Of a stretch of 64,000 nucleotides of DNA, positions 29,579 through 57,136 are shown piece by piece; the stretch's first letter is position 1; each line of letters opens with the position of its first letter. The position numbers and the translations under genes are program-made. This stretch comes from Tubulanus polymorphus (taxonomy: Eukaryota > Animalia > Nemertea), in contig NC_134026.1 of the NCBI RefSeq assembly GCF_964204645.1, positions 11,555,950-11,619,949 of the forward strand, written 5' to 3'. The notes beneath the pieces were generated by a model. It made no database searches. It had not been told where the DNA came from and worked only from the letters and a program-made list of their open reading frames with translations.

Positions 29579-30000
29579 ATGTTCCATGTTTTCGTTCCAA
29601 CGCAGATCGAGAAACGTGTTCCTTTAAACTGGACTAATAATAATTGCGAAAGTATGAACAATCTCATAAAACTATCGACGAATTGGAAAATTTTGAAAAT
29701 TCCTGATCTCATTGAGCGCCTGAATAGTATAGTAGATCTGCAGTATGCAGATATTCCCCGAGCCTTACACGGTCAAGGAAACTACCAAGTTTCGCCTCGT
29801 TTAAGCAGACACGTCGTTTCGCACGTAGTATGGTGTAAAAAATCGAAGGAAGAAAAGGATGCGATCATGAATACATTTTTCAGTGCAAAATCAAAAACAA
29901 AATCGATCGAAAAAGAAAAGGATGCGATCATGAATACATTTTTCAGTGCAAAATCAAAAACAAAATCGATCGAAAAAGTTATCAAGTCCAGTTACACGTT
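29579..30000 (+). pseudogene. Mutator/MULE transposase C-terminal fragment with a 63-bp internal duplication
   Basis: WTNNNCESMNNLIK..WK...PDLIERL...Q...RALHGQGNY. The segment EKDAIMNTFFSAKSKTKSI is duplicated. Confidence 0.7.
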
Positions 30001-30786
30001 ACTAACCGTATTTACTGTGTTTTATTGGGTTTTTATCGAAGAATGTCTGCGACGGGGAAAACATGTGCTGCCCCAAGCAAGTGTCGCATTACCGAGAACC
30101 CCTCGCCCACTGAGGGCAAATCGGTTAGGTCTAATAAAAGTGAAACTGAGCCTAACAAAAAGGAAAGGAAGGGTATTGTTTCTGCCGACTCGGCCAGCAC
30201 CCCCGTTCCGGGTCCATCTAAGCCCCAAAAGGACCTGCTTTCTAACACAGGTTCAGCAGAATTTCTCAGCCTTATTGAAGGTGTGGTAGCTAAGGCAGTA
30301 AATGAGCTTCAAAAAGGGGACTCCCCTCATATCGCTCACCCTAAAAAAGGGAAACAGCCTAAATCTTGTGTTGCCAAGACACCAAAACATCCAAAGTTTG
30401 AGCACGTTTGTAATATAGCTATTTCCAGAATCCCAATGTATTAAATTAGGCAGCCTGAAAAATTCATCCCAATCAGTCGCTTGCCGGTTCAGACTGAATG
30501 GAAGATTGTTTGGATGAACCGGAACCGAATTTCCAATTATGTACTTCAATTTAAAAATATTCTGTTAACTCGACCGCCGATCACACATCTATATCTGTAC
30601 TTCGATTTCCGATTTCAAAATCAAACCCCCTGTTTCGCTCCCGGCAGGTGTGGTGGGTCTGTAAGGGACACTCAATCGAAAAATCAAACAAAATTTACCA
30701 GCCAAATAAATGAATAATGGGGACAATCCCTATTTTAAGATCAAAAAACAAAAAAAAACACCTCGGACTCCGAGGAAAGTGTCTCT

Positions 30787-31371
30787 ATGGGTGACGATTA
30801 CATAAATGCAGACACTGCAACGCTCCTTAGTTATGATGAGGACATTGATGATTTCTTGAATGAAGAAGTTGGGGGAAAAATGTCGGACCCCAATAACAAT
30901 GACTCTGAAGTCGATGACTCCTGGATCGATGACATTGCTTCTGACATGGGTCAAAACGAGCAGTTAGGAGACAAGATAAATGAGAAATTGGCAGGCATCT
31001 TGAATAAATTAGCGACAAAACGTCTCACTGACGATGCCATTAAAGCTCTATGGGCAAAGTATTTACGGCCAGAGAATCTGAATGTTCAAAACCCTAGGGT
31101 AAACCAGACGATCTGGTACAAACTAAAACATTTCACGAAGAAGCGTGACCTCCGACTTTCACAAGTCGGGGAGAAAATCTCTAATACCTTGAACGCGCAA
31201 CAGGCTGAATTGATTAATGATTTGAGTGATTTGAAGGCCAAGTTAAAAAGGCCGGAAGATAGACAAAAGGTCGTTGAATGCTCCAGAAAAACGTTTGACG
31301 TTTTTCAAATCTCTGTGGTTGCTTTACATGAATGCAACCAAGAGACCCGGAGTTGTTTGGATCAAATTTAG
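30787..31371 (+). pseudogene. DIRS gag-like ORF1 fragment
   Basis: YLRPEN...PRVNQTIW...RDLRL motif typical of DIRS1 ORF1; lies upstream of RT. Confidence 0.7.
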
Positions 31372-31659
31372 GTGACAAGGTCAAAGAGCTGAATGATGCA
31401 GCTATTATGGGGAGGAAACTCAGTAATCTGGAAATACTGACCAACAACCTCATCAGTATGGCAGGAAGCCGGCCTCGCATTTCGCTCGACGTTTTTAGGA
31501 AGAGGCAGGCGGCCTGCACCGTACCCGCCTCGGAAGATGCACCATCAGAAGCAAAACGACATAGGGAGGAGAAAGAAAGGCCAACAATAGAGGCATGTAG
31601 GTTTAACCAAACCTCATGGAAATCTTTCATAGGGGCTACACTCAAAAAAGGAGAAACGC

Positions 31660-33320
31660 TTGCCAAAAACTTCCAGGCAGGGTCTCTTAAAAACCATTAT
31701 GCCTACTGGAATTCACTTTCTACTGATCATAATATTTTAGAGATGATCAGAGGGTGCAGAATTGAGTTTGACAAAACTCCTCCCCCAGTTCCTGAGAGAG
31801 AACCTTATAGGTTCAATAAGGAAAAGTCCTTGAGAATTGATTCTGAAATCATAAAAATGATTACTAAGAGAATAATTGAAGAAGTGGCCCCTACAAAAGA
31901 TCAATTTGTTTCAAATATTTTTACAAGGGAGAAGGCTGATTACTCGCTTCGAGTTATATTAGATCTTACCGAGTTAAATGAGTATATAACTTACCATCAT
32001 TTTAAAATGGAAAGTTTGAAAACTGCTATCAGTTTAATGTCCCCGGGGTGCTACATGGCTTCAATGGATTGGAAAGACGCATATTACTCTGTCCCTATCA
32101 ATCGTTACTATAGGAAGTACCTCAGATTTAGGTGGCGTGATAAGTTGTATCAGTTCGCTTGTTTACCTAATGGTCTCGCGAGTGCTCCGCGTTTTTTCAC
32201 GAAACTCACTGAAGTTCTATTTTCTCAAGCACGAAGAGATGGTCATTTGTGTTCTAGCTTCATCGATGATTCGATTCTTGTAAACCTGACACTAGATTTG
32301 TGTAGGGAAACAGTAGTTTACATGGTGAACTCATCGGAGCTAGCTGGGTTTATTGTTCACTGGTTGAAATCAGTTTTGAACCCCACGCAGATATTGATCT
32401 ACCTAGGATTCATTTTGAACTCTTTGGAGATGACAGTGCGTCTTACGCCTGAGAAATTAGAAAAATGTTTTTCCACCAGATTGTAAACAAGATATTGAAT
32501 GGTGGACAAAGAATCTCGCAGATCAAAAAGCCCATATTCTGAGAAAGAAAGTTTGCACTGAGATCGAGACCGATGCCTCAAATGCTGGTTGGGGGCTTAT
32601 AGGCGCCTCCCAACGCAGGAAAGAACAGGGGGCACTTGGTCAAATGTAGAAGCCAAAGACCACATAAATGTGTTGGAGCTAAAAGCCGTATTCATGGCTT
32701 TAAGGTCTTTTAGTAGGGAAACCAAAGATAATTCTACTACTGTATCATATATCTCAAATCAGGGGGGTAGGAAACAGGGGTGTAATGAAATTGCAAGAGA
32801 AATCTGGCTCTGGTGTTATAAACATAATAATTGGCTCACGGTTACGCATTTGCCCGGCATTAATAATGTTGAAGCAGACAAACTGAGCAGGTCAATTGAT
32901 GACAATATGGAATGGAAACTTAATCCAAAACTTTTTCAAAAAATTAGACAAAAATTCGGAGAAATGGAGATTGATCTGTTTGCTTCCAGACACAATTTCC
33001 AATTACAAACTTATATCGCTTGGAAGCCTGACCCCTATGCTGAATACATAGATGCTTTTAGTGAAGACTGGGCGTCTTGGTTTTTCTATGCTTTTCCACC
33101 CTTCAATTTGGTTGGGAAAGTACTTCAAAAGGTGATGTCGGATCAGGCGTCAGGGGTTTTGGTAGTCCCGTTCTAGACGACTCAGCACTGGTTTTCTAGA
33201 TTTGTCCATATGTGTAAAGAACAACCTTTTATTCTCTATAGCCGGGAAGCTCAACCAGCACTAACTCACCACTGGAGAGAGGAGCAGCAACTGCCAAAAA
33301 CAAGATTACTAGTAGGTTAG
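31660..33320 (+). pseudogene. DIRS RT-RNase H-MT ORF (interrupted)
   Basis: HFKMESL, DWKDAYY, LPNGLASAPRFFTK, FIDD, HINVLELKA, DNST, IDLFASRHN, YAFPPF. Confidence 0.9.
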
Positions 33321-33324
33321 ATAG

Positions 33325-34266
33325 ATGGAAGATTGGCCACGCAGCAAAAAAATCCTCGCAGCTTCATGGAGGGATTCCACCAAGGCTCAATCCAACAACT
33401 ACATTGACAAATGGGAACGTTATTGTTTTCGAAGGGAGACGAGTTCAACTTTTACAGATATAGAAACTGTAGTGGAGTTTTTGACTGAACTTTATGTTAA
33501 TGGTTTAAGTTACAGTGCTATTAATAGTGCACGCAGTGCGTTATCTAATTATGTGGAAATACCAGGAGATAAAACGGTTGGTTCCTCTACGCTAGTGAAT
33601 AGATTTATGAAAGGAGTATTCAATTTAAGACCTTACATTCCCAGGAACAATGTAACTTGGGACCCCTGCCTTTTACTGGATTACTTGAAAACCATTTCCC
33701 CAGTTAGGAAATTGCTTCTTAGAGAGCTAACTCTCAAAACGTTGTCGTTATTATGGTTGCTGGCAGGGCAAAGGGGTAAGACTATCCTCATGATAGATAT
33801 TAGAAATATTGTTTTGACTGAAAATTCAGTTAAAATTAGGTTTGGGGATATTCTCAAAACCACTAGACCTGGTTTTCATCAGGAAGAAATTAAAATTAGA
33901 GCTTATGCTCCTGATAGGCGTCTCTGTCTCGTTACGGTTTTGAAGGAATATTTGAGTCGTACTGAAGATTTAAGAGACTCGTTTCAGTTGTTTATAAGTT
34001 ATTGTAGGCCTCATGGGGCTGTGTCTAGGGATACGTTATCCAGGTGGCTTTAGGTGACAATGCAAAAAGCTGGAATAGATGTAGATAAATTTACTCCTCA
34101 TTCAATTCGTGGGGCAAGTACGAGTGCTGCTCTGAAGGCCAGAGTACCTATCCATACAATTTTATCCACTGCTGGTTGGGCTAGAGAAAGCACTTTTAGA
34201 AACTATTACAATAAACCGGTGGAGAAATGTAAGGCAGATTTTGCCACTGCTGTTTTAAGTTTATAG
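33325..34266 (+). pseudogene. DIRS tyrosine recombinase (one internal stop at 34051-34053)
   Basis: INSARSALS, GQR, KTTRPG, HSIRGASTS, AGW..ESTFRNYY (R-K-HxxR-W-Y catalytic set). Confidence 0.92.
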
Positions 34267-36269: not shown

Positions 36270-36718
36270 TTATCATTTAATCATATAATAATGAAAATCC
36301 TTGATTATATTTTAGTTTGCATTGTAGTCGCAATATTTTCATCAGTTTTTGTGTCATATTCTAAACATATATTTGATAATTTATAACTTATATCTTTAAT
36401 TACACTCGATAATACTATTTCATTTACAGGTGCAAAAGTTATTTCCAATATTAAATTAAATATCAAATTGCTAATATCAAATTATTAAATGAAATATCGA
36501 ATTGCATATTTACATAAAGGCGCGTTATTATTTATATATTGAAAGTCTAATGGAATTTATGTTTATATATTTTTATTTATTTTTATTTTTAATCATTTTT
36601 ATTAAATTATCTGCAGCATTAGTTTTATTGCGTTATTAGCTCCTGACAACTGAAATTAAAAATAAAATTACATGTTCTGCAGCATAACTAATAATACTTC
36701 CAGCAGATTTCAATATAA
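36270..36718 (-). pseudogene. Decayed fragment of a second, related Polinton (major capsid plus neighbouring gene)
   Basis: 36280-36645 aligns by eye to 46335-46650 (MCP), and 36645-36718 to 47145-47220. Confidence 0.8.
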
Positions 36719-38856
36719 AAATATAGCTGCAAAGCAGCGATAACGGGTTTTCTGCACAGTCTTAGAATCCTGTTCAACGGTCGATTTCGACAAAGCATTT
36801 GATAGGCACAACATAAGCCATTACTAAACCGGCTATTAGGAAACAGAATCAATGATAGGTCGCCCAAATGGCTCAGTAGTTACGAAAACTTGTAGCCGAC
36901 ATCAACGGAACGCCTCATCTCAAGTCGGTCTAACTAGTAGAGCATCCTAAGTCGTCTTCTGTTTAATGTCCTGACAAATGACATACACAGTAATCCAAAA
37001 AATACCAGACCGAGTAAATTTCCAAAACGAACTTAACACGCTGTTCGACCAAAAAACTTAATGTTCCGACAAGAAAATCTTGTTCGAGTGTAAACAATTC
37101 AGTTTGGTCGAACAATACGCTTTTTGTTTGAACCAAAACTCTCTTCATTCTGACAAAAAAATGTGTTCGAATGAAAAGCTATGTAATTGTTGAAATGAAA
37201 AGCTTTTTGTCCCGGCAAAAAAATTTGGTTGAGCGAAAACAATTTTTTCGAACGAATGTTTGAATGAAAACAATTCTGTTCGATTGAACGAAATAATTAA
37301 TACTTTTGGTGCGGAGAAAAAACTTTTTACAATATACTTGTTCGAAAGAAAAACTTAATGTTCTGAAAAGAAAATTCTGTTCAAATTAAAACGATTCTGT
37401 TCGATCGGACGATTGATCGAACGAAAAACCTTTCGTTTGGACAAAAAAAGTGTGTTCAACTTTGTTCTAACAATTTTTTCAAATTGGTTCAATCGAAAAG
37501 AATATTATTGGTTGGAACGAAATAAATTTTGTTGAAAAAACTCAAATGAAAAGTCTGGCTTATAAAGCTGTCTCCTCAGACGAAAATTTTCAAAAAAATC
37601 TTCATTTTTGTTAATAAAATTGATAATTGTGATTGATCGTTGCACGTCACAACCAGTTAATCACTAATTGACACGCATTTTAATAAATCTGATTCCTTCT
37701 TTACAGTGAACTTAGCTTTAACCTAGTAGAGGCTACTAGCCGATGTAGGCCTATGTATACGCGTAGGCCTAACATCCGGACAGATTGGTCGTAGGCCTAT
37801 TGAATAACAACCCACCTAAATATCGTAAATTTTGTTTTGAAGTTCAATCCAATGAGTCCGTTAATAAACGCAACAATTATACTGTGTTTGTTTGAGACAG
37901 TAAAGCTCAGTACCGGTAGGCCTAAAGCCGCGTAAAACTCGATAAACACTTCAAGCGACACAGCGAACGATCACCTTTCTCCCACAGCGAACGCTTACTC
38001 CGAACGTCAAGTGTGAGTGAGTCCAGCATACGGAAAGGAGTGTGTTATATATACTTGTATTTAATAAGTACCTTGTGCATTTGACAATGATCGGTATGTA
38101 CTGTAGGAAATATAGAGAATTGATTGTATTGATATAGAGGTTGAAGCCCGCGGCCGAATTAAGTAATATATTCTGTTATTTTGATACCTCGTCGACATAA
38201 CAGCTTTTCTCCGCTATATCTCTTCGGCGTGTTTAGTTTAGGCCTACGACTCCCCGGTACACTAAAGATTTATCTTAGTAAATACACGGTAAATTTGGTA
38301 AAGAAAAATAGGTATTGTTAAACTAACTCCTTGAAACCCGCAGCCAAATCACTCGTAGTAACAAATTAATTTGTACTCGATTTGATTCTCATGATGAGGA
38401 GAAACTCGCAGCTGATCCCCGGAACGTCGATTCGTCGATGTTTACGGCTCGACAGTGCTTTTAAAATCAAAAGTAGTAAATTCCCAGTGTATCGGTAATA
38501 TGATTTGATGAGGAAAATGGGCTATTGTTAAAATTACGGTTTGAAGACCGCGGCTGAATGTGAAGTCTGCGGCAATAAATTAGTTCATTTATACTTGAAT
38601 TGACAATCGAAGTGACAATCGGCCTGCAGGTTGATTTCGGGATGACGACTCGAAAAACATGTCGCCCCATTGAATGGGGCTAAAATGTCGATGTTTACGG
38701 TCCGACAGTGCTTTTGTAACGATGATTCGTGAAAAAACACGCAGAGTATTTGTAGATCTCAGTGAGCTGAACGATATCATACGGATTGTATCGACAACAG
38801 CGGCAAGGTAACAAAGCCTTAGTTCTTTTAGTGAAAATAGTGTGACATAAAATAAT
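36719..38856 (-). mobile_element. HINE family A body, degenerate TTCGAA-rich core
   Basis: Begins ATATAGCTGCAAAGCAGCGATAACGGGTTTTCTG. Reverse complement of the 5807-7975 flanks with a different central array (37040-37530). Confidence 0.75.
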
Positions 38857-38882
38857 AAGTATAGCTGCAAAGCAGCGATAAC

Positions 38883-39476
38883 AGTAATAGGGGTAATGGG
38901 CTTTCAGGCCAAAGGTCGAACGGTCGAGCTCATTAAAAAACAAAACATTAAAAGTAATTTAAAACTATAATATATTTTCATAACCGTGTGCATTTTATAT
39001 TATAACTAAATATTTATTCTAAGATATCAATAATTTAAATTTTAAATGCATATTGTATTAAATCAATTGGTCGCTCCACTTCGCTACCACTCCGCTCCGC
39101 GAACAATTGATTTATTTACAATACACATATTCATATAATCAAATATATTTTAATAATAATAATTATTCTATTATTCAACTGAAATACACACGGCTATTAA
39201 AATATATTATAGTTTTAAATTACTTTTAATATTTGTTTTTAATGAACTCGACCATTCAACCTCTAACCTGAAAGCCCATTACCCCTATTACTCTTAAAAT
39301 AATCATATAAATGAATAACATTTAAATTGAAAGATTATTCAATATAAAAGTATATATTTACAACATTATTTCAATATTCATATTTGTATGAGTTAGATTT
39401 TTAAACATTAAAAGTGTTAGTAAAGTGTGATTGAAATAATACATGATATAAATCATTGAACTTCTAAAATCAATTT
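38883..39476 (+). repeat. Polinton left TIR, containing a ~410-bp internal hairpin (38883-39292)
   Basis: Reverse complement of 55698-56259. The terminal sequence reappears inverted at 39267-39292. Confidence 0.93.
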
Positions 39477-39498
39477 AGTAAAAAAATATGTATAATAA

Positions 39499-40152
39499 AT
39501 GGAATCAGAACAACCACAAACTATAAATATAACAAATAACACTGGCGTCATAAATATATACTACAAGAAGTGTTCTAAATGTAAATTAGATAAATTAGCT
39601 ATAACAGAATTTAATAAGCGTAAGATTAGCAAAGATGGTTTTCAATATTTCTGTAAAACTTGTTTTAAACTATATACCAAACAATATCGAGAAGATAATA
39701 TAGAACATTATAATTATTATATGGCAGAATATATGAGAGTAAGATATCAAACACATCTTAATTTTAGATTGAAACAATGCTTAAGATCTAGATTAACACA
39801 ATTATTCAACAAAGAAACGCATTCAGAAACACTATCTAATTTATTGGGTTGTTCAGATGAATTTTTCATATCATGGATAATATATCAATTCGACGATAAA
39901 ATGAATATAGATAATTATGGTGAATACTTTCATATTGATCATGTGTTGCCGATTTCTAAATTTAACATGAATGATGAATACAATAAAAAACTTATTTGGA
40001 ATTGGAAGAATCTAAAACCTTTAGAAAAGAAGGAAAACATAATTAAATCTAATAAACTAGATATGAAATTATATTTAGATCAACTGGATAAAGCAAAGAC
40101 ATTTGTTGAATTATGGAACTCAACACATAATGAAAAATACGTTGAAGCTTAA
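39499..40152 (+). CDS. Zn-ribbon plus HNH endonuclease of NCLDV-like type
   Basis: CSKC...CKTC, LRSRL, LLGCS, NYG..FHIDHVLP..F....NWKNLKPL...N..KSN. Intact 217 aa. Confidence 0.75.
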   Translation: MESEQPQTINITNNTGVINIYYKKCSKCKLDKLAITEFNKRKISKDGFQYFCKTCFKLYTKQYREDNIEHYNYYMAEYMRVRYQTHLNFRLKQCLRSRLTQLFNKETHSETLSNLLGCSDEFFISWIIYQFDDKMNIDNYGEYFHIDHVLPISKFNMNDEYNKKLIWNWKNLKPLEKKENIIKSNKLDMKLYLDQLDKAKTFVELWNSTHNEKYVEA

Positions 40153-40578
40153 GCGCTTAGAAAACCGGTTACTCTCGATCTATGTCAAACCGCCTATATG
40201 TAATTGTATTAGCTCTTTGCATCTGTCGCACGTTATATTCAGTTGAATGGGGTGTATCTCATTTGAATATTGATCGAATGTGCTATTTCAGTTGAAAAGG
40301 ATTAATCAATTACATCACAAAGGAACATCTGTTACAATCCAGGCAAACGTGCAGGAATAATTAGTTTGGACGAACGTGTGCCACGTCGGCAGTTAGAAAT
40401 CAACTTTCACATACATAGTACGTATTGGATATTCTCTCTCAAAATACAGTTTACAGTTCTAAATCTAAGTGTAAGTACCGTTTTTTGTAGTTATTATGAA
40501 GTAGGGAAACCTTTGAACATATTTAAGTACAGTAATTCATTTTTCAGTAATTCATTCATCGACATCTTTTAGATTAAA

Positions 40579-41001
40579 ATGGAATACAGAGATCAACCAG
40601 AAATTCCAAGCCAACCAACGGATGAGGAACCAGAAACGACGGATAGTGAAACACAGGAATCAATAGAAATGGAGGATAAAACTCTCGTAATTGACGAACA
40701 AACTTCACAAAAATTACAAGAACATTTGGACTATCATCAAGAAATGGTGAAAATTCTGAGTGATGTAATACATAATAAACAATTACCGCGCGAACTACAA
40801 TTACCAAAATTACCAGCAACGCGACTTAAATTGCTGTTTGGACTCAAAGAATCGAAAACTAAGAAAATGAGTGGAGATATCAGTGCCGGTTTTGAAAGAA
40901 AACTGAGAAGAGTAGGTAGATTAATAAAATATGAAAAATTCAAAATATTAGGATTAGCATTTAGTGAAGTAGTCAGATATTTACCGGAAATTGAAAAATG
41001 A
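40579..41001 (+). CDS. Polinton hypothetical protein
   Basis: 140-aa ORF with TAAAATG start and acidic N-terminus. Confidence 0.45.
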   Translation: MEYRDQPEIPSQPTDEEPETTDSETQESIEMEDKTLVIDEQTSQKLQEHLDYHQEMVKILSDVIHNKQLPRELQLPKLPATRLKLLFGLKESKTKKMSGDISAGFERKLRRVGRLIKYEKFKILGLAFSEVVRYLPEIEK

Positions 41002-41865
41002 TTGGAAACAATCCAGTAATTAAAGAATTCTGGACAAAATTATAAATTATAACACTGAAGGTCTTGGATATCAAAAAATGTAATCTCGATTGTATATATC
41101 TGTTTTAATATTGATTGTTTACTGTTAACTAAGTATTGCGCAATAACCGGTCCGATTGAACCGCTTTTCTATTGTTCTCCATTGTTCTATTATCGATCGT
41201 TGTTAATGGCGGCGGTTGTTCTGTATTGATTGTTTACTGTTAACTAAGTATTGCGCAATAACCGATTGGACCGCTTTTCTATTGTTCTCCATTGTTCTAT
41301 TATTGATCGTTGTTGACGGAAACAGCTGCTCAATATTGATTGGTTACAGTTCTATGTTTGAATGTTGTAGTTTACAGAATAAAAATATAACTGTGTATTG
41401 CGCAATAACCGATTGGACCGCTTTTCTATTGTTCTCCATTGTTCTATTATCGATCGCTAAAATTTGTATAAAAAATATATGTGTTTATGAAATAGTAATT
41501 CCACCAGTCGTTTCTTTGAATTTATTTTCAGTTTGAGGATTTATTATCGAGGATCCGAAATGACTTATCTGGACAGTTATAATTACTGCTCCTAATAGAT
41601 AGACAATAGTAGTGAGATATTAAATCCTAATTTAAATAAAATATAATAAAAAAACAATAACTTCAACTGCTAGTGAATTCTATTATATTTTTAATATTTT
41701 CTTTTCAAAAAGAGAATACTTTATATTTTGAATAGATTCAAATAGAAATTCTTTAAATTCAAATAGCTAGTATCAGTAGTCAATACTAGAATTCTTTAGC
41801 TTTAACTAGCTAGTATCATTTGAAGAATACTTATAATATTTTTTTTGCTTTTTTCTCTAATATAA

Positions 41866-42469
41866 ATGTCAAAGAAATCTAATAAGAATAGTATTGATAT
41901 TGAAAAAAACATTAGATGATTTGGGTATAAGTGATAATAAAGATACAGTTGTAACTAATTGTGCTCAAGTTAATTGTAATATAGATTATGAATACTATTT
42001 ATATTGTGAGCATCATCTTGAATTATTAATTGCTGGCGGGAAATCTAAGGATTTCTTGGGAAAAATAATAACTTTTCAAGAATTAGATGCTATGAAACCA
42101 GATAAAGTAATAAAATATTTTGAGATTTATGAAGAAGCAAGATTAGCCCGAATAAATGATTCTATTTCAGATGGTATTGTCAAATGTTACTCTAAGTTAT
42201 GTAACCAGTTAATACCAATTGATGACGAAAATAAATTATATAGTGATTTGAAAAATGACTACTTAGTTATGACTGAATTACAAAAATGGGTCGGTTATGC
42301 TTCATTCCAATTAGGATCGGTTATGACATTAATTTCTACTGGCGTCATAACATTTTCGAACATCAAACCTATGGAATATAAATCAGGTAAGAACGAAACA
42401 GATGTACTACAACCAAACACCGAAACAGAAAATGAATCAGAACAAAAATTAACTAAAATAAATGAGTGA
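41866..42469 (+). CDS. Polinton/adintovirus hypothetical protein (5' frameshift)
   Basis: TAAATG start at 41866 joins ORF 41894-42469 (GKSKDFLG...DLKND). Confidence 0.6.
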
Positions 42470-42829
42470 TGGATTTAAGAAAAAGGCTAGATCCGAGAAA
42501 CAAATTAAATGGGCAAGAGAATTAGGTAAAAGATCTTCAGAATTAAAAAAAGCTAAGAAAAAGAAATTAACTGATTAAATGAATCACAGAAATTATCTGA
42601 TATTGATTCAAATAATAATCCATCTGATTCTTCTAATGCTGGACGTAATTATGAATTATATATTACAATTGGATTAGTAACAGTTATTATATTATCCGGT
42701 GTAATATATAAATCAAAATTCAAATCTGATGATAAAGATGATTCCAATGACAATAAACCTATTATATCAGAAAATACGTCAAATCATAAGGCCATTGAAA
42801 CTAAATCTAAATTATTATTAATGGATTAA
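42462..42829 (+). pseudogene. Small basic protein with a TM segment (frameshifted)
   Basis: TAAATG start; SEKQIKWARELGKRS and LYITIGLVTVIILSGVIY. Confidence 0.5.
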
Positions 42830-42835
42830 AAGAAG

Positions 42836-43932
42836 ATGAAAAAAAGAACAATATTTAAGATATTTATATTATAACCCAGAAAGTGAAGTATCATATTCTA
42901 ACGTTACAGAATTATGGAATAAAATTAAATCTGATAAGGAAAATGGTAATGGTGCCGTATGGCACCCACACGGTGATATAAAATATAGCGAATTGAACAT
43001 ATCAAATCCACAAGAAAATGGATAAAACTTATTTAACAAGAAAAGTTATGGTTTCATATATCGATCAACAATGGCAAGCAGATTTAATTGACATGAAGAA
43101 CTTAGAGGAATACAACAAAGGATATTTCTGGATATTAAATGTTATAGACATATTCAGTAGATACGCATGGTCAATTCCAATCAAAAATAAAACTGGTATA
43201 GAAGTAACAAATGCTTTTAAATCAATATTTAAAGAAGCTATTCCAGATAAGATACAATTTGATGAAGGTAAGGAATTTTATATCAAACATTTTAAAAAAC
43301 TATTATCTGATAACGATGTAAAATATTTTTCAACACATTCAGATAAAAAAGCATCTATTATAGAAAGATTTAATAAAACATTGAAAACTAGAATGTGGAA
43401 ATATTTTACTGCTAATGAAACATATAAATATATCGATGTGTTAGATGATTTGGTGAAAGGTTATAATAATTCTAAACATAGTTCTATAAATATGAAACCT
43501 ATACAAGCTAGAAAAGAAGATAATTCGGAAATAGTTTGGAATAATTTGTATGGTGTGTTTGTTACACATGATTTCGGTGAACCTAAATTCAAAATTGGAC
43601 AACACGTAAGAATATCTAAATATAGAAAAACATTTTATAAAGGTTATACCCCAAATTTTACAGAAGAAATATTTAAAATTAAAAAGATAATATTAACTAA
43701 ACCTTTTGTTTGTAAATTAGAAGATATAAAAGATGAAGAAATATTAGGTTATTTCTATGAACAAGAATTATCACTTGTACCAAATCCAGATGAAATAGAA
43801 TACAAAATAGAAAAAGTATTGAAAACAAGAACTCTTAAAGGAAAAAAGTATTCTTTGGTGAAATATAAAGGATATGATGATAAATTTAATGAATGGATTT
43901 TATCTAGTGAAATTAAAAGAATAAATGAATAA
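42836..43932 (+). CDS. Retroviral-type (rve) integrase with C-terminal chromodomain; N-terminus frameshifted
   Basis: LYYNP, WQADLIDM, IDIFSRYAW, QFDEGKEF, IERFNKTLK; chromodomain YKIEKVLK..LVKYKGY...FNEW. Confidence 0.93.
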
Positions 43933-44521
43933 AGATTTATTTATATTTGAACCGCATAATATGTTAGTTACTGGTGTAACCAATTGTGGTAAAACACATT
44001 TCATATTAGATTTGTTAGAAACTATTTATAAGAATCATTTTGATAATATAATATTATTCTGTCCTACTTATGAAATGAATAGAACATATAATAGAGATAT
44101 AGTTAAGATAAAAAAGTTTATTATATTAGATCCTAAAACAGTAAAAGAAAATTTAGATAATTGTATTAAGATAGCAATTGATACTTATAAAGGATGAAAT
44201 ACATTATTCATTGTAGATGATTGCGCAAATTTACATGATTCAAAAGTTAGAGAAAGTGAGTTATGTTATCTAGCTTTCTCTGGGAGACATTTTGGGATAA
44301 CAACATGGGTTTTAAATCAAAAATATAATTCAATTGTTAAAGACTTTAGGGAGAATATAAGATTTCTAGTTTTATTTTATAACAAAGATAAAAAATCTAT
44401 GCAACAATCATCGGAAGAAAATCAAATTATACCTACTGAATTACATGATGAATATATGAATAAATTAAAGAATAATAAAGATTCAAAATTATTACTGAGA
44501 TTACAATTTCCATATGAATAA
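43925..44521 (+). pseudogene. A32/FtsK-like packaging ATPase (in-frame TGA at 44195-44197)
   Basis: Walker A GVTNCGKT. After the stop come Walker B LFIVDD, then SGRH and LNQKY. Confidence 0.88.
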
Positions 44522-44895
44522 AAATTTATAAAATAACTATTTGTATACCTATGTATTAGATACCCCAATACATGATACCCTATTAGATACCCTAATACCT
44601 GATACCCTATTAGATACCTTAAATACTTAAAACCCCCTTTTTTAAAATAAATATTTTTTATACAATTTTCAACCAATTTATTTTTATTTTATCAACTAAT
44701 ATATGAATAAGTTTGAAATAATAAAGGTTATTTATTATTACTGAGGTTTCAATTTCCATATGAATATCAGTTTATAAAATAAGATATTTTATGTATTTGA
44801 TTGTATTAGATATGTATTAGATATGTATTAGATACCTTAAATACTTAAAACCCCCTTTTTTATTTACTATTATTTTATACAATTTTCAACCAATA
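44480..44895. repeat. Duplicated convergent intergenic block with short GATACC repeats (possible terminator region)
   Basis: GATACCTTAAATACTTAAAACCCCCTTTTT occurs near 44614 and at 44831. Lies where the + and - gene blocks converge. Confidence 0.6.
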
Positions 44896-44919
44896 TTATT
44901 ATTTGTGTTAAATATAATT

Positions 44920-45774
44920 AATATTTCAATCACTTTCACTATCAGACCCTAACAATTTATTCAAATTCTCTACCGTATCATCGTCAATAGTTGTTTTATT
45001 TTTATACTTTTTCATCCTTTCTACCGCATCATCAATAGTTTCTTCTTTATGTTTCATAGAATGTTTATTATCAATATCTGTAACTATATCACCATGTGGG
45101 TGCCGTATGGCACCATTTTCATTATTATCTTTATTAGTGTTTGCTCCTAATATTTCATTTACAGTGTTTGGTTTTAATATTTCATTAGCATAGGTTAGAT
45201 CTAATTCATCTTTATTAGGTGTTGCTAATAATAAATCTTCATATATTTTTTCACCATTTACTTTTTGATTTGAAACAAACTTTGTAACCTATCTAAATGG
45301 GTGTTCTATAAATTCTTTTAAACCAACACGTTCTATAACATTATTTATATGTACCCTTGTATTCATATGTTTATTCCAATTTGATGTAGCGTTTGAAAAT
45401 TCACTTTTACAATATCCACAATAATTTCTATTTTCACTAACATTTAATATTATTTCATTATTAGATGTAGAAGGTATTACATTATTAGATGTAGAAGGTA
45501 TTACATTATTAGATGTAGAAGGTATTACATTATTAGATGTAGAAGGTATTGCGTTATTAGATGTAGAAGGTATTACATTATTATCAATTACATTACTTAA
45601 ATTATCAACAACACCACTTTTATTATTATCGATTTCTATTAGTTTAGTTTTATAAATTTTGAAAATAGGATCAAATATCAAAGCTATATTACAAGGTATT
45701 ACATAATATAAACCATCATTATTTTCATGTGTATCGATGTACGGAATATGTTTATATACTTTACCTCCTTCCAT
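44920..45774 (-). CDS. Hypothetical protein with 8-aa repeats (NNVIPSTS) and a C2H2-like finger; continues past the stop at 45289
   Basis: ORF 45289-45774 (CGYC...H....H). The downstream frame stays mostly open to ~44920. Confidence 0.55.
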
Positions 45775-45806
45775 TTATTATATAAATTTTTATTAAAGTT
45801 AAAATT

Positions 45807-47054
45807 TTAATACATAACACTATTTAATTGAGAATTTACAATATTTAATTGCGCGTCAGATATAATATAAATGTGCATTTTAAGATTTTTGATTCCTTTA
45901 TTCTTTGTCATGAATAATTGTATTCCATCTTTAGTGTTCTGTAATTTTTTTCCAGAACCATGTAATGAATTATCCTCTGTTGTTCTAAAATCTAACCATA
46001 ATGCATATTTATTACCGGTATAATAATCAATTTGATTAATATTACAATTTTCAGATGATTTCACATTTTCATTCATAAAATGTTTTCTAATTTCTGGCCA
46101 TTGATTAATCATTCTCATTCCTTGACAAAATATTTTATTTGCTATTCCTTCGATAGTTATTTCTACTTTTGTTATTTCAGGATTATAATGATTATCAACA
46201 TTTATTGCACCATTAGTATATGTTGCAATGGTAAAAAATATTAATACACCTTTAATAGATCTTCTTGGGAAGTTAATATTCTCATTAATAATTTCATCAT
46301 TTGCATTAATAGTTACGGTTTTAAATTTATCAATGTAATCATATAATAATGAAAATCCTTGATTGTATTGAGTTTGAATTATACTTGAAATATTTTCATC
46401 AGTTACTGTATCATATTCTAAACATATATTCGATAATTTATAACCCATATCTTTAACAACGCTAGATAATACAATTTCATTTACAGGAGCAAATGTTATT
46501 TCGAATATAACATCTTCTTGAATTGCGTATTTATATAAAGGTGCATTATTATTTATCAATTCAAAGTCTAATGGAATTTTATATTTGCTTCCATATATAC
46601 TTTTTATCAATTTATCTACAGCATTAGTTAATATTGCATTATGTGCTTCTGATCTTAATTTATTTTGGTTTTCTGATTGGATTCCTTGAAATATCATATT
46701 ATTTCTGTTTTCTCTAGTTAACCATAAATCTTTATAATGCGTAAATAAATTATAATCATCTAATGAGAAAACTGTTTCGGGACCAATCTTTATTGTTAAC
46801 TTTTTAATCAAATATCTCCCAACATTATCAACAACATAATTATTATTATTACCGATTACTTTTATATCGGCTGATAAATAAATACTATTTGGAACATAAA
46901 AAGTATTTTGTGTCAATCGAGGAATTCTAACATATAAAGTTTCATCGGGATTAATATTAGAAGGGTTATGAGTAATTATATGATGAGATCTTTCTGCTTT
47001 AATAGCATTAGATATTCTATAATTCTTAGAAGGATTGATATAACTCCCACTCAT
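45807..47054 (-). CDS. Major capsid protein (double jelly-roll, hexon-like)
   Basis: Intact 415 aa. NPSNINPDETLYVRIPRL, IPLDF, NICLEYDTV, ALWLDFRT..D..LHGSG, as in adintovirus-type MCPs. Confidence 0.85.
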   Translation of the reverse strand: MSGSYINPSKNYRISNAIKAERSHHIITHNPSNINPDETLYVRIPRLTQNTFYVPNSIYLSADIKVIGNNNNYVVDNVGRYLIKKLTIKIGPETVFSLDDYNLFTHYKDLWLTRENRNNMIFQGIQSENQNKLRSEAHNAILTNAVDKLIKSIYGSKYKIPLDFELINNNAPLYKYAIQEDVIFEITFAPVNEIVLSSVVKDMGYKLSNICLEYDTVTDENISSIIQTQYNQGFSLLYDYIDKFKTVTINANDEIINENINFPRRSIKGVLIFFTIATYTNGAINVDNHYNPEITKVEITIEGIANKIFCQGMRMINQWPEIRKHFMNENVKSSENCNINQIDYYTGNKYALWLDFRTTEDNSLHGSGKKLQNTKDGIQLFMTKNKGIKNLKMHIYIISDAQLNIVNSQLNSVMY

Positions 47055-47094
47055 TTATTTAACAAAAAAATTGATTATTTATTTTTTATCATGT

Positions 47095-48562
47095 TTACTT
47101 GATATTTTTTGATATCATGTTTACTAGCCCAAAAATAATAGCACTTACAACTGTAATTAAAAATAAAATAATATGTTCAGCAGCAAAGTTAATAATGTTT
47201 CCTGCAGATTTCAATATAAAACCAACAATTGATGCAATAACTCCTGGCAATGCTGCAGCAGATTTTTTAGATAGTTCCCATAAATATTTTGCTAATTTCT
47301 TTAAACCATCTTTAACTTTATCTTGTATAGAATTATTATCATTCGGGGGTTTATCCGGTTTATTGGGAGTAGGAGTAGATTTCAAAGCATTTGATATTGC
47401 TAAACCAATTGTTGTAAATAACATAGTTACAGCTGTTAGAATTGAACGAATTGTTATTCCTTCTGATTTAAATAATAATCTTATTCTATCTTTCAATGAT
47501 ATTTTAGAATTTGGTTTAATCAACAAATCTTTAACAACAACTTTTAATCTATTAATATTATAATCATATGATTTTAATAATATATCTCTTTCACCTTTCA
47601 GTACTTCTAAATTATCTTTTAAATTATCAATTTCTTTTTCTAAACGTAATTTTTTTTGCCTATATTCCATTTCATCAATTACTTGACGATCAAGATCAGA
47701 CTTGTTCCATTTCTTTATTCTTATCAGTTAATTCTTTTTCTAAATTTCTAATTTCAATATCTCTTATACTTTTATCATGCGCAATTTTATCAGATGCAAG
47801 TCTTATACTTTCAATTTCTCTAATTGCTTCAACAGAAAATATATTATTTAAATCTTCTAATTCTTGATCTGTTGCATCAAGTAATCCATTTGGTAAAAGT
47901 TTTTCGGTTTGAACTTCTCTTGAATTAGGTTTATTAGTTTTGGAAGTTATATTCTGTTCAGAAGTTGTTTCTGTTTCTAAATTATTTTTGATTGTTTCAA
48001 ATAATTCATTAATTCTTTGTTTAAATACTCTTTTATTTTGATTTATTTCTTCTTGTGTTACATCTTCTATTTCATTACTATTTCTTATTCTCTTAATTCT
48101 AGATGTGTCAAACTTAAGCAAAGTTGATTTTGCTATTATTTTTTCTTCTTTTTTATTAGAGATATTAATATAATAATCCGAATCATCTTTCAACCTATAA
48201 TAATATTCACCATCTAAAAATTTTAATTCTTTTACTAAAAGTCTGGCGCCTCTATAATTTATATTATATCCAGATTCTTCAAATACATGTTGGAACTTAT
48301 ATATAAATTCATAATTTTCTATATTTTCTCTTTCTAAATCTGGATTTAAATTTTCAATAGGTATTCTCGATCTAGTTCTTCTATCATGTTCATCTGTTGA
48401 TGGGGCTTTAGAACCACTATCTGCTAAATTAGAATTATACGCTGATTCATTACCATCATCATCAATATTATTATCAGCAGTCATATAATCATCATTGTTA
48501 GTATTGGCATCATCATTATTTCCCATGCCTTCCATTTCATAATCTTTTCCACCTTCTGCCAT
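47095..48562 (-). pseudogene. Adintovirus-type coiled-coil protein with C-terminal hydrophobic helices (split into two ORFs)
   Basis: ORFs 47696-48562 and 47095-47670; LF..EGITI.SILTA and AALPGVIASIV. Confidence 0.65.
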
Positions 48563-48579
48563 TTACATAATAAAAAATT

Positions 48580-49929
48580 AAAATTTAAAATATAATATTC
48601 CTCCGATTACAATTCCTATACAAGTTAAAGCTAATTTAGCATTTTCATGGGATTTATTATCATCATTTAGTTCAATTATATCATGTTGAATATCACCGTG
48701 TGGGTGCCATATGGCACCATTATCAGTTCTAATATTTTCTGATGTATTGTAATCTTTTATTTTAGAATCATTATTTAATCTAATATTCTTAGTTTTAGTT
48801 TCTGTTGATTGAATATGTTTTTTATTTTTTCACCTTCCATTAATTTTGGAGCAGTAATCTTTTTATATCTTTTTATTTATATCATTTAATCCAAATGAAT
48901 TATTTATTGTTGCAGTTTTAATTAAATTATTATAACCAATTATGTTTCCCATCTTTAATACTAAATCATTAGAAATAATTAATAGATAAGGGCCTATACA
49001 ATAATTTAATCTAATATGTGATTTATCTAAATAATTTTGATATCTTACAATGTTTTCTGGAATCGATCTATTTTTATTATTATGAATGGAATCTTCAAAT
49101 AATACTTTAAATTGTTTCTGCGCATCGAATGAAGTGTTATCATTTCCAATTATTGGGGATCTTGTCTCAACTTGCGCACCTAAAATACAAATTAAATAAT
49201 GGATTGATTTATTCTTTGTATACCAGCTTTAGTAAAACCTTCACTATTTTCTAAAATGAAATTAACCCAACCATTATTGTTTTGTTGTTGTATATTATTA
49301 AAATATTTTGGTAATTCATTCCAATTTAGTGTTCTTATATCTGAATTTGTCATTATTTTTCCAAATTCTTTAGTATACAATATTCCTAATCCACCCATTG
49401 TTCCAATTTTTGCTCTAAAATCTTTATTTGAATTAATATTAAATTCATTACATATTTTATAAAACTTAGAAAAATTAATATTATTATTCAATTCTTTAAA
49501 ATATTTTGAACCTGGTAAAGGACATTCTAATTCATCTAATATTTATTTTATTTGAAAATATGTATGAAATCTAAAAAGTGATAACATCAATGGTAAACTT
49601 GGTTTGTTTAAATGATCATTCCAACTAATTCCGCATCCTGTTGTTGCGCAACAAACAGCAAAATTTAATTGGTTCTGCCAATACTTCATATTAGATTTTA
49701 ATAACCATTGTTTTGCCTCATTTAAATTTTTAAAATTAATTGTTTACACATGAAATATATTTTCCATCTTTACATGAAAATTATTACTTTCAGTAACATA
49801 AATATATAAATCAATTAATGAATCTAAAACTTCATTTCTATATGTTATATCTTTATTAAAATCTATTGCTGGAATATTATATTTAATTGATTTATTATAT
49901 TGGAAAGCTTTTGGAAAACTATCTGCCAT
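48580..49929 (-). pseudogene. Conserved Polinton protein (frameshifted)
   Basis: YWQNQLNFAVCCATTGCG.S..DHL, FRFHTYFQI..IL, G..RINQSI, CILGAQVETR; hydrophobic C-terminus. Confidence 0.65.
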
Positions 49930-49945
49930 TTATATAATTAAAAAA

Positions 49946-50380
49946 TTAATAATTTATTAATTCTTTTAATAATTTATCTTGTTCTTCAACTGTTATATGA
50001 CCATTTAAACTTATTATATAATCTAGTGTATTCTTTAATTTATTAATTTCTTTTTTATTAGTTTTAATTTTTTCTTTATTACTTTTTATATTTAATTTTG
50101 AACTTATACCAGTTAAAACACTTGAACTTAATCTTAATACACCAATTGATATAGCTAAAGGTGTTAATGGACTGAATATTGCTAGAAATGTTATTACAGA
50201 ACTAATTGTAACTGAACCACTTATAATCAAATAATATATAATTTGACATTTTAAATATTTTTTCTTTTTTATCTTTAAGTCACTTTCAAATTCTAATATT
50301 TGTTTTTCTAAATATATTTTTAATTTAGTTTTATTTATATCATGAGGAATAATATCAATATTAACAACTTTATCATCCAT
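49946..50380 (-). CDS. Small predicted membrane protein
   Basis: 144 aa, two hydrophobic stretches, TAAATG start. Confidence 0.6.
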   Translation of the reverse strand: MDDKVVNIDIIPHDINKTKLKIYLEKQILEFESDLKIKKKKYLKCQIIYYLIISGSVTISSVITFLAIFSPLTPLAISIGVLRLSSSVLTGISSKLNIKSNKEKIKTNKKEINKLKNTLDYIISLNGHITVEEQDKLLKELINY

Positions 50381-50399
50381 TTATTTAGCAAAAAAAAAT

Positions 50400-52576: not shown

Positions 52577-55500
52577 TTAACACGTTAGAATTCTTTTCAT
52601 TATCTCGTTCTCTTTGGTTTCTTCTCTTTTGAACTTTAGATATTCATCTAAATTACAACCATATGTAACTGTATGAATTCCATCATCTAAAATATATCTT
52701 TTATCATCAAATGGATTCAAACTAACCTTTTCAATTTCTTCAATAAACATTTCATGATCTTCAAATCTTAAACATCTCATCTTATGTTTTCTAACTTCTT
52801 CATTGAATATACAATTGATGTAATCTTTGAAATGAATATTCTTTTCTACTACACTTTTGGTTATTCCTTTTAACTTTTTAGCTTCATGTTCTTTAGTTTT
52901 ATATGAATACATTTTAGATCTAATACCGATGAACTCTATCATTTCTTCACCACCTAATTCATCTTTGAATTTACCAGGAACTTTTTTATTATCATTGCTA
53001 AACAATTCATGATTTTTAGGATAGTTACTGAAATCAAAATGATGTTTTAATGTTTTTAAATCATCTGTTATGTTATCAGTTTTTATCTTTAATATGTAAG
53101 AATCTGTATCAAAATATAGTATTTCTATATGTTTTTCTCCAAAAAGTGGTTGTAATACATTATAATAGAATTCATACATTAGTAATTTTGATAATTCTAA
53201 AACTGACGCACCAACATAGATTGGTTTATTAAATTTCATAGAAGTTCTTCTCATTTTAACTGCGGCTAAATTTTCATCAAATATTCTGTTACCTAAAAAC
53301 TTAGGATATGTTTGTAAATGCCTTATCCTTTTACCATTACTAACTAACTCAATATGATTTCTATTTCTAATATTTTCACAAGTCTTACCATAGAATGCAT
53401 TATTCATTAACTTGAAGAAATCTTTCTCAAAATCGGTTTTAGCTTTAGTTCTCTGTTTGGTGTTAAAATCTATATATTTTTCTAACCACTTAGATTGACT
53501 GAATGAAATATATCTATGTACTTTTTTTAGAACCATTCCTTGTTTTAGATAAAACTTTAACATTCTATAATGTACTACATAATTATATTTATCTTCTTGA
53601 GTTACCATTAACTTTTCTGTATGAATATGATTTTCAGGTTTAATTCTTTTTTGGTAATTTGATAATTCTTCATGAGTTACAGTTTTATGTTCGGGACAGT
53701 AAGCTAGATTTCTAAATTTAAATTTAATATGTTCAGGATATTCTAAATCTACAACAAAGAAGTAACCAGTATCTGAATCATCTGCAATATCTAGAATTCT
53801 TTTCTTCAAATCAAATTTATCATTATTCCATAAGGTTGTGGTTCCATCATTGCCCAACCATACAAATTATTTGCATCTATATATAATAACTTATATCCAG
53901 GGTTATCATTTACATTGAAATATCTATCACCTAATACACCTGAAACTCCTCCTCTTATAGATTTTTCAAATAATAATAATTGATCTATATTTGTTAACAA
54001 ATCCATTTTTATATCTGTAAATTTTAATCCACAATCCCATGTTAATCCTGGACTAGAATAACAATGACAAGGATCAATATTGAAATATTTTAGGTTTACA
54101 TCTCTAAACCTTTCGAATATATCGGTTAATAATAATACATCTGATTTTAAATATAAATCTACTAATTGCCCATGATTTTCTATTTTGAAATGATTCCAAA
54201 TATTCAATGTTCTATTATATACTTCATCTTTAACATATTCATTTTTTAATTCATCATAGAATTGTTCTTTTAATAATTCAGTTATATTGAAATCATTATG
54301 TGATTTATAAAATGAATATGGAATTGCTCCTTTATATTTTATTAATTGAAAATCATCATTATTTGGGTAGTGTTGTTTTAATATTTTCAATTCATCATCA
54401 ACTAATGATTTTGATAAGTTATCTAATGAACTATTTAAAAATCTATATGAATCTATAAATCTTAGGCAACCAAATTGGAATGATATATAATTCTCAGATG
54501 TTTTAGCTAACATTCTAAATTTATAAGTTGGTATTTTATCTTTTGATCTATTTGAATTTAATCTTTCTATTTCGTTATTAATTTCTTCTATTTTATGACA
54601 TAACTGTTTGATAAATAAATGTGCATCATATCCTGATAGATTATGAAATATAACTGGTACAAAGTTAATTTTCTTAGCTTGTAAGTTACAATTCTCATGC
54701 GCGGCGCCTCTAAACTTTCCATTCAAATGATCATGGTCTCTTACTTTTTTATCTTTATAATTAAATATCTTTTCACAATAATAACATTTATCTGCAAACG
54801 CAAATTCTTCTTTATCTTCTTCTGTCATTATAATTTCTATATTATTATTCAATAATTTACTAAATCTTATTTCATATTCAATTAATAAGTCACAAAAATG
54901 ATTGATAACATTTTCATTTCTATAATCATAATATTCACTTTCAATTAGTTCTGGATAATCAGATTTAATATATAACCCGAAAGCAGCAGCTGATTGATGA
55001 ATCTTTTTAATAGTATTTGTTTTTGGTGGTTCTTCAGAATAATCATTTTCATTAGAATTTAATTTCTTTCTTTTATAATATATTTCTTTTCTATCTTGAT
55101 CAGTTAATTCTTTATTTAATGATTCAAAATCTCCATATATTATAAATGGTACTTTATTTTTGTAATCATATTTTTTGAATTCTAATATTTTATCCTTTTC
55201 ATTTGGTAAGACTAATTTACAATAATCATGATTTTCACATAATTGTTTATGATTTAATAATGTACTTTCATTACTGAATCTATGTAAACATTTTCTTCAA
55301 AGATATATTTTATGGTGATCACTTTCTGATTTAAAAAATAAATCGATTTGTTTAATCCACATATAATGATTCTCATAATACAGTATATCTATAACATCGT
55401 TTGAATCATAATCTTTTGATAGATATAAAGGTTCTAATGTATAATGTTTTATATTGTTACCTTTTGTATTTGGTAATTTGATTAAATCAAATACATTTAT

Positions 55501-55677
55501 CTTTATATTATTATCTCTTTCTATTTTTGGGATGTTTTTAATTATAACAGGATACTTATCTATCTTATAATTATTTTCAAATTGTTTATAAAATTGTTTT
55601 AGTTTTATTGTGTCTTGATTTTTGGGATTTATCTATATTGATATATATGTTGGACAGTAGTACTTATTTGCTTCCAT
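52577..55677 (-). pseudogene. Protein-primed family B DNA polymerase with endonuclease-VII-like insert (frameshifted)
   Basis: IYGDFES, CYYC...VRDHDH..GKFRGAAH..CN, FHNLSGYDAH, FIDSYRF, YIDANNLYG, KLMNNAFYGKT, YFDTDS. Confidence 0.95.
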
Positions 55678-55697
55678 TTTAATACTAAATTTTTTAT

Positions 55698-56259
55698 TAA
55701 AATTGATTTTAGAAGTTCAATGATTTAAATATGAATTATTTCAATCACACTTTACTAACACTTTTAATGTTTAAAAATCTAACTCATACAAATATGAATA
55801 ATGAAATAATGTTGTAAATATATACTTTTATATTGAATAATCTGTCAATTTAAATGTTATTCATTTATATGATTATTTTAAGAGTAATAGGGGTAATGGG
55901 CTTTCAGGTTAAAGGTTGAATGGTCGAGTTCATTAAAACAAATATTAAAAGTAATTTAAAACTATAATATATTTTCATAACCGTGTGTATTTCAGTTGAA
56001 TAATAGAATAATTATTATTATTAAAATATATTTGATTATATGAATTTGTGTATTGTAAATAAATGGAGCGACCAATTGATTTAATACAATATGCATTTAA
56101 AATTTAAATTATTGATATCTTAGAATAAATATTTAGTTATAATATAAAATGCACACGGTTATGAAAATATATTATAGTTTTAAATTACTTTTAATGTTTT
56201 GTTTTTTAATGAGCTCGACCGTTCGACCTTTGGCCTGAAAGCCCATTACCCCTATTACT
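55698..56259 (-). repeat. Polinton right TIR, containing an internal hairpin (55883-56259)
   Basis: Mirror of the left TIR with a short deletion at the hairpin apex. Confidence 0.93.
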
Positions 56260-57136
56260 GATAACGGGTTTTCTGCACAGTCATAGAATCTTGTTCAACG
56301 GTGGATTTCGACAAAGCATTTGATGAGGCACAGCATCAGCCATTACTAAACAGGCTATTAGGAAACAGTATCAATGATAGGTCGCCCAAATGGCTCAGCA
56401 GTTATCTCTGAACGAAAACTTGTAGCCGAAATCAACGGAACGCCTCATCTTGGAATAAGTCGGTCAAACTAGTGGAGTCACGCAAGGTAGTATCCTAAGT
56501 TGTCTTCTGTTTAATGTCCTGACAAATGACATACACAGTAATCCAACATATACCAGACCAAGTAAATTTCCAAATCGACCTTAACACGCTGTTCGACCAA
56601 AAAACTTAATGTTCCAACAAGAAAATCTTGTTCGAATGAAAATAATTCTGTTTGATCGAACAATACGCTTTTTGCTTGAACCAAAAATTTTCTTCATTCT
56701 CACAAAAAATGTGTTCGAATAAAAAGCTATGTTATTGTTGAAATGAAAAATTTGGTTGAGCGAAAACAATTTTTTCGAACGAATGTTTGAATGAAAACAA
56801 TTCTGTTCGATTGAACGAAATACTTAATACTTTCGGTTCGGCGAAAAAGCTTTTTTCAATATACTTGTTCGAAAGAAAAACTTAATGTTCTGACAAGAAA
56901 ATTCTGTTCAAATTAAAACGATTCTGTTCGATTGAACGATTGTTCGAACGAAAAACCTTTCGTTTGGACAAAAAAAAGTTTGTTCAACTTTGTTCTAACG
57001 ATTTTTTCAAATTGGTTCAATCTAAAAGAATATTATTGGTTCGAACGAAATAAATTTTGTTCCGACGAAAGAATTTTCAAGCGAAAGGTCTTTTGAACGA
57101 AAGAAAAGATATTTATGGTGCTCCGCAGTAACTTAA

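Follow-up and report, generated by a model that had tools for sequence, protein, structure and literature searches.

The terminal inverted repeats (TIRs) of a Polinton/Maverick element in the genome of the nemertean Tubulanus polymorphus each carry a foldback of about 400 nt, in which an inverted second copy of the element's terminus faces its genes, and sequencing reads place this structure in most copies of the family. We propose, with a probability of roughly 40%, that the displaced 3' end snaps back and rebuilds, by a predicted fold, the duplex origin for protein priming. This local-origin reading is taken as the most likely because the stems are preserved, the differences between their arms are biased by strand, the terminal protein is retained in the lineage and a single isomer is seen. 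The stems would then be kept by selection, the fold would form in vivo and priming would use it. Coordinates refer to the window, the whole 64-kb stretch of DNA that was analysed, and its features are collected in Table 1.

Table 1. Features of the element and its ends, by position in the window.
Feature	Position	Strand	Basis or remark
Left target-site duplication copy, 6 bp	38877..38882	.	identical to 56260-56265
Left TIR, ~625 bp	38883..39507	+	against right repeat: 576 matches, 14 substitutions, 36 gap columns
Outer arm of 112-bp terminal stem, AGT-type terminus first	38883..38994	+	perfect pairing over the initial 26 nt
AT-rich unpaired stretch, outer side of internal loop	38995..39057	+	complementarity not above shuffles, p 0.325
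Apex: 17-nt stem (39058-39074 with 39099-39115), ~24-nt GC-rich loop	39058..39115	+	read depth 1324-1434 across
AT-rich unpaired stretch, inner side of internal loop	39116..39182	+	same alignment against shuffles
Inner arm of terminal stem, ending in second terminus facing genes	39183..39292	-	carries 7 shared C-to-T differences
Unique inner TIR part, ~215 nt, ending over ORF1 start codon	39293..39507	+	left/right alignment
ORF1, 217 aa	39499..40152	+	terminal gene, left side; without Pfam match
Retrovirus-like integrase with chromodomain	43018..43932	+	PF00665 E 9e-9, 36 bits, cut-off 32.6; PF00385 below cut-off
A32-like packaging ATPase, stop-split	43925..44521	+	PF04665 on both pieces
Probable major capsid protein, 415 aa	45807..47054	-	922 homologues, best 76%; without profile match
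Broken protein-primed DNA polymerase B	52577..55677	-	PF03175 and EndoVII; stop codons at 55633 and 55297; reading frame shifts near 55650 and 53825
Right TIR, ~591 bp	55669..56259	-	alignment to left repeat
Right foldback, 377 nt	55883..56259	-	32-nt apex deletion at about 56064/56065 (TIR positions 196-227)
Right target-site duplication copy, 6 bp	56260..56265	.	identical to 38877-38882

The element and its genes

The element spans 17,377 bp (17.4 kb; 38883-56259) of AT-rich sequence (GC 0.20-0.33 against mostly 0.35-0.47 outside) between perfect copies of a 6-bp target-site duplication, and has inserted into a host repeat that also occurs, uninterrupted, as a paralogue at 5596-5966. It is a Polinton/Maverick, an identity that follows from the presence of an rve integrase, an A32-like ATPase and a DNA polymerase B (PolB) with PF03175 and EndoVII domains. 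The long TIRs, the 6-bp duplication, the retrovirus-like integrase and the packaging ATPase of such elements are all found, as is a protein-primed PolB with a PF03175 match and its catalytic motifs, although the gene is broken in the window copy. The conserved 415-aa protein is probably the major capsid protein (MCP), and no match to a maturation protease was obtained among the element ORFs scanned.

ORF1 is presumably an HNH-like nuclease by its motif label, its likeness to HNH nucleases in profile comparison being weak. A role for it as a dedicated hairpin resolvase was considered and rejected: in the four contigs, out of 25 MCP-anchored ones from relatives, that hold its homologues these lie at varying internal sites, and many PolB homologues have the EndoVII domain as well.

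Several other repeats were noted in the window. A direct repeat of ~245 nt lies at 44451-44904, where the two gene modules of the element meet, and a coding motif of 36-59 nt occurs in three different element genes (42941-42998, 45085-45123 and 48670-48728). Outside the element, 36270-36720 holds a piece of a second, diverged Polinton with 73% nucleotide identity to the capsid-gene region, 23515-24657 holds another foldback element unrelated to the Polinton ends (402-nt arms, 96% complementary, with 339 nt between them), and 29558-34053 holds a reverse transcriptase followed by a Dam-like methylase piece, which is probably a DIRS-type retrotransposon.

The PolB of the window copy jumps from residue ~33 of its relatives to residue ~335 at about 55590, a deletion of ~300 residues which removes the terminal-protein region and the vOTU cysteine. 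Relatives at 76-79% identity are 1319-1365 residues long and retain both the terminal-protein and the vOTU domains; among 40 aligned homologues the serine of the GSG motif is present in 38 and the vOTU cysteine in 39. In the structural model of one relative (P0150; pLDDT 86), residues 80-200 show the strands and two helices of the terminal-protein domain in the order described previously (PMC11071308), with the GSG serine in a loop, modelled at pLDDT under 50, between the second helix and the last strand. The best structural match of the model is the phi29 polymerase (E 6e-17). Sequence and model together indicate that the lineage is protein-primed; the window copy itself is decayed. Loss of the terminal protein was not accepted as a design of the family because the PolB gene carries several other lesions.

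Anatomy of the terminal foldbacks

The initial annotation had described the terminal sequence at 38883 as reappearing inverted with its end at 39292, with a mirrored arrangement at 55883-56259. This was borne out: the 26-nt terminal sequence occurs at four sites (38883 and 55883 on the + strand, and ending at 39292 and 56259 on the - strand), and its first 19 nt have four exact matches where 0.02 would be expected by chance. Folding confirmed the foldback at the left (410 nt, -103.1 kcal/mol, z -21.0) and at the right (377 nt, -101 kcal/mol, z -20.7), with terminal stem arms of 112 and 110 nt, in agreement with the ~110 bp first given. The inner arms said to surround a GC-rich apex fared less well: the GC-rich loop is there, but it sits on an apex stem of 17 nt, and the flanking ~65 nt (63 and 67 nt between the stems) pair no better than shuffles (alignment score 28 against 25.2 +/- 5.8, p 0.325). 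The apex loop may resemble AAV Rep-binding repeats. Similarly, the picture of each TIR as a ~400-bp foldback holds for its outer 410 or 377 nt, but the repeat runs on to about 39507/55669 (~600 bp, the left/right alignment covering 626 and 591 nt) and takes in the start codons of ORF1 and PolB, the unique inner part being likely a promoter region. The right TIR has indeed lost most of the apex, with 32 nt absent.

In the predicted folds, the terminal palindrome has a paired, flush 3' end which points into the genome, and both ends of the window copy are the same isomer. The outer 195 nt are identical between the left and the right end and were not copied, at either end, from its own inner arm, a combination that fits end-to-end correction and not hairpin transfer. 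In the inner arm 4 of 183 sites differ between left and right, against 0 of 195 in the outer part, a gradient that is not significant (P 0.054). Differences between outer and inner arms are mostly common to both ends, so the foldback predates the current insertion.

Conservation along the foldback is uneven. Stem positions 1-26 pair fully, positions 27-112 and the apex stem do so nearly, and the 63/67-nt middle pairs at chance level yet has kept its length, which is not what even decay of an idle duplication predicts. This bears on the possible, if doubtful, explanation that the inner arm is a relic, an old inverted duplication of the end without function of its own which was spread to both ends by TIR correction. 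The duplication would have arisen through a snap-back copying error, or through the capture of a Polinton-derived mini-element as a new end in the layout of a composite transposon; each 410-nt unit does resemble a miniature element, with two 112-nt arms round a non-complementary interior. The lost right apex of the window copy and the distant relatives without a foldback (below) also agree with a relic. However, neither unit is flanked by a target duplication of its own, none being found beyond the end of the inner arm at 39292, and, in the right end, pairing is perfect over 44 nt of AT-rich stem that adjoin the unalignable middle.

Strand asymmetry of the stems

All seven substitutions of the long stem that are shared by the two ends have C in the outer arm and T in the inner arm, the latter read from its own terminus; one extra mismatch column sits at a gap within a run of A. 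On the strand that has the terminus as its 3' end, these seven sites form G·T wobbles; on the other they are C·A mismatches. The 3'-end strand has 52-57 unbroken terminal pairs against 26 on the other strand, and folds 7-11 kcal/mol better with DNA energies. Given 16 C and 21 G, seven of seven sites in one class has a two-sided P of about 0.012 (one-sided 0.001-0.007), for a test on seven sites and a pattern noticed post hoc. A single episode of cytosine deamination, on a displaced strand which was then copied, would produce the same C-to-T pattern, and under the relic explanation the bias would record one such event, a copy of the deaminated strand giving exactly the bias observed.

RNA energies widen the gap between the strands (-200 against -155 and -186 against -151 kcal/mol), and the favoured strand is that of an outward transcript. 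Both points would suit a fold acting in RNA, with an outward transcript from the TIR promoter forming a long duplex with G·U pairs as a source of small RNA or as a decoy. This explanation is nevertheless highly improbable: the duplex ends exactly at the DNA terminus, as suits a role at a DNA end, and Rfam gave no match near threshold, its one match (20.9 bits against a threshold of 46) being a chance one.

Foldbacks across the family

Reads were mapped to 38780-40280 from one raw-read run with the same species label (X6, about 12% of it read) and from three contig runs, all quantitative data coming from X6. At the terminus, 1738 reads exit at 38883 into diverse flanks, which makes the family large and 38883 a true end. 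Depth is 1365 over the apex and inner arm, 1390 over the inner terminus and 752 over ORF1. The ratio of foldback to ORF1 depth is therefore 1.82, where two TIRs per copy predict 2, indicating that most copies keep the foldback at both ends and that solo 410-bp units are not abundant. The structure is real, present in most family copies and, as the initial annotation held, more elaborate than a simple TIR. Of the functions suggested there, priming from a hairpin or a local panhandle is plausible. The suggestion that a ~410-bp mini-element might be released is not supported: the units are without their own target duplication, the depth ratio is as above and there is no drop in depth at the inner terminus. 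No solo unit was found in the 64-kb window and X6 shows no depth excess, which again does not favour a relic derived from such units; rare solo copies may occur.

Misassembly of the inner arm, named at the outset as a possible refutation, is so very unlikely as to be close to negligible, because the fixed differences between the arms occupy the same sites at either end, reads cover the apex and the 39292 junction at an even depth, and contig pieces cross the apex in all three contig runs. In its favour, none of the reads or contig pieces listed spans the whole 410 nt.

Among the nine best-supported read differences in the foldback, four fall at stem mismatches of the left copy, and in all four the read base pairs with its partner. 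These pairing bases are carried by about 89-99% of reads, which speaks against a functionless relic. The remaining five comprise one in the loop and four in the loose middle, where three break a chance pair. None of the seven shared stem sites appears among the 40 of 285 read differences listed. Length gains of +1 were noted in runs that pair between the two arms (237 of 1769 reads in one, 125 of 1207 in the other); they look compensatory but may be unlinked, and the contig runs disagree. A 6-nt deletion within 38995..39057 is found in 541 of 1433 reads, and 666 reads from right ends depart from the left sequence at 39476. The 32-nt apex loss is absent among the 12 of 18 indels and 15 of 62 joints listed, and so the right-end deletion is probably peculiar to the window copy.

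Two further variants were noted in the reads. Over 38883-38939 the depth is roughly double that seen in the remaining TIR, and 605 reads part from the sequence after position 57; other elements, a sister group, share only this tip (the first ~57 nt). At 39301-39459, several hundred reads represent family variants which skip 115-141 nt of the unique inner part.

The flip-flop isomers envisaged by the initial annotation are disfavoured. In addition to the single isomer of the window ends, outer-type run lengths at two homopolymer sites of the inner arm make up 7-9% of reads (97 of 1116 at one, 78 of 1080 at the other), where a rough model expects 17-20% for a 50:50 mix. Flipped ends thus make up at most 15-23%, a rough bound from two homopolymer sites in one run; since slippage would look alike, the true share may be lower, and some ends, fewer than half, may be flipped. 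No strand-changing joint appears among the 15 of 62 joints listed.

The isomer counts bear on self-priming of the parvovirus kind, in which a folded 3'-OH would prime the second strand and the closed end would later be opened by a nick or through a dimer. The layout of a palindrome followed by a unique inner segment mirrors that of AAV, whose inverted terminal repeats (a palindrome and the unique D segment) prime replication (available text of PMC11575299), and here too a flush, paired 3' end is directed into the genome. The same idea has been proposed for virophages as well as Polinton-like viruses (PLVs) of protists (available text of 10.64898/2026.07.28.741278), and the window copy is without a terminal-protein region. 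However, we consider self-priming unlikely. Hairpin transfer randomises flip and flop (available text of PMC11575299), against the rough limit on flipped ends given above. Moreover, no Pfam match to a Rep/HUH nickase was found among the element ORFs scanned, the terminal protein is retained in relatives, and its deletion in the window copy sits in a gene with several other lesions. Unlike AAV and other parvoviruses, with which it shares the terminal palindrome, inner segment and flush 3' fold described in the available text of PMC11575299, this is a duplex integrating element with no Rep found and with flip and flop not near 50:50. A combined form, in which an animal Polinton lineage kept protein priming and acquired self-priming ends of the parvovirus kind in addition, so that copies without the terminal-protein domain, such as the window copy, can still be copied from the folded 3' end, is quite improbable; if true, the family would be a present-day intermediate between DNA viruses primed by protein and those primed by a hairpin.

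Ends of relatives

None of the 25 close MCP-anchored metagenome contigs reaches an element end. Close relatives do contain internal, non-terminal palindromes of 74-250 nt (L003:3099-3181, L004:3743-3825, L005:9082-9359 and L007:3183-3255). Among 43 distant PolB loci, of which three show an end, no local inverted repeat longer than 184 nt was found, in a survey that may be affected by assemblers breaking at foldbacks. The three ends (L050, L061 and L069, with polymerases at 31-39% to the query) lack a long foldback, and Polintons therefore do not need one. The terminal motif had two matches in viral contigs, both by chance and within unrelated genes, and neither the MCP nor a close PolB had a match in viral contigs or in phage records. 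Polinton-type polymerases also occur in 21 contigs (L028-L048) of bacterial and archaeal genome bins, where they probably represent host contamination.

A possible local origin of replication

In the model we prefer, the foldback, a family-wide end structure of this Polinton, would act on the single strand freed by strand-displacement copying. The 3' end of that strand would snap back into a flush 112-bp duplex copy of the terminus, and this local duplex origin would then serve the terminal-protein-primed polymerase, sparing it the wait for two ends 17 kb apart to pair. The ends would not be renewed by hairpin transfer, and hence flip and flop forms are not expected. An end-to-end panhandle is, however, far more stable than the local folds (-582 against -103 and -112 kcal/mol), so the local fold could win only kinetically, and the loss of the apex from the right end of the window copy also argues against a local origin. 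The copies observed are all integrated ones, with no replication intermediate among them.

In protein-primed copying, the displaced strand needs a re-formed duplex origin, for which the usual model is the panhandle (available text of PMC11886824 and PMC4046053), itself without direct evidence according to the former. The panhandle models of adenovirus and PRD1 (PMC11886824) and of Polintons and casposons (PMC4046053), as far as their available text goes, share with ours the re-formed duplex origin and end-to-end TIR correction; unlike in those models, the duplex here could form locally at one end. Casposon TIRs can contain palindromes (available text of PMC4046053). At Streptomyces telomeres, according to the available text of PMC4513846, a folded 3' single strand of about 300 nt likewise lies beside terminal-protein priming, and in vitro a folded-back 3' end can undergo extension. 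These telomeres differ in having many short palindromes, an internal origin and Tap/Tpg proteins unrelated to protein-primed PolB (pPolB).

Rather than in priming, the stems and mismatched interior might be bound in a structure-specific manner, to protect the end, package the DNA or load the integrase. We regard this as improbable. Packaged Polinton DNA is expected to be duplex, so that the fold would not form, and no candidate binding protein was identified. Precedents do exist in the available text of two papers, in that the mismatches of vaccinia hairpins serve packaging and not DNA synthesis (PMC8956199) and Tap binds the folds of Streptomyces 3' overhangs (PMC4513846).

Relation to known elements and significance

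Animal Polintons/Mavericks (adintoviruses) share with the present element a length of ~17 kb, TIRs, a perfect 6-bp duplication, an AGT start, an integrase, an ATPase, a protein-primed PolB with an OTU region and two gene modules facing the centre (available text of PMC8097293 and PMC8502044). The terminus here reads AGT-AAT against (AGT)2 in animal Polintons and, unlike in those described, a second terminus lies within the TIR, as part of a 410-nt foldback. The strings 'palindrom' and 'hairpin' are absent from the main text of PMC8097293 and PMC11131425, 'hairpin' is absent from the available text of PMC8502044, and the available portions of PMC11296320 and PMC6431247 make no mention of foldback TIRs. 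The literature search as a whole returned no foldback TIRs of animal Polintons, with Kapitonov and Jurka 2006, Pritham 2007, Repbase and supplements outside its scope.

The closest parallel is in virophages of Halocafeteria seosinensis and PLV subtype 4, for which terminal palindromes have been described and hairpin priming proposed (bioRxiv 10.64898/2026.07.28.741278). As in the present family, and as far as the available text of that preprint describes, those palindromes lie inside the TIRs and adjoin the target duplication, and they are found in all complete copies of several subtypes. They measure 52 nt in the example given and belong to protist elements with mostly non-pPolB replication genes, whereas the foldback here, imperfect and biased by strand, measures 410 nt and occurs in a Polinton lineage of animals which has pPolB and a terminal protein.

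The finding thus extends end palindromes from protist virophages and PLVs, mostly without pPolB, to an animal element of a protein-primed lineage. The start of Polinton replication has been modelled, without demonstration in the literature covered, and this family, high in copy number and with a flush 3' foldback that is biased by strand, makes the local-origin, hairpin-priming and relic models separable.
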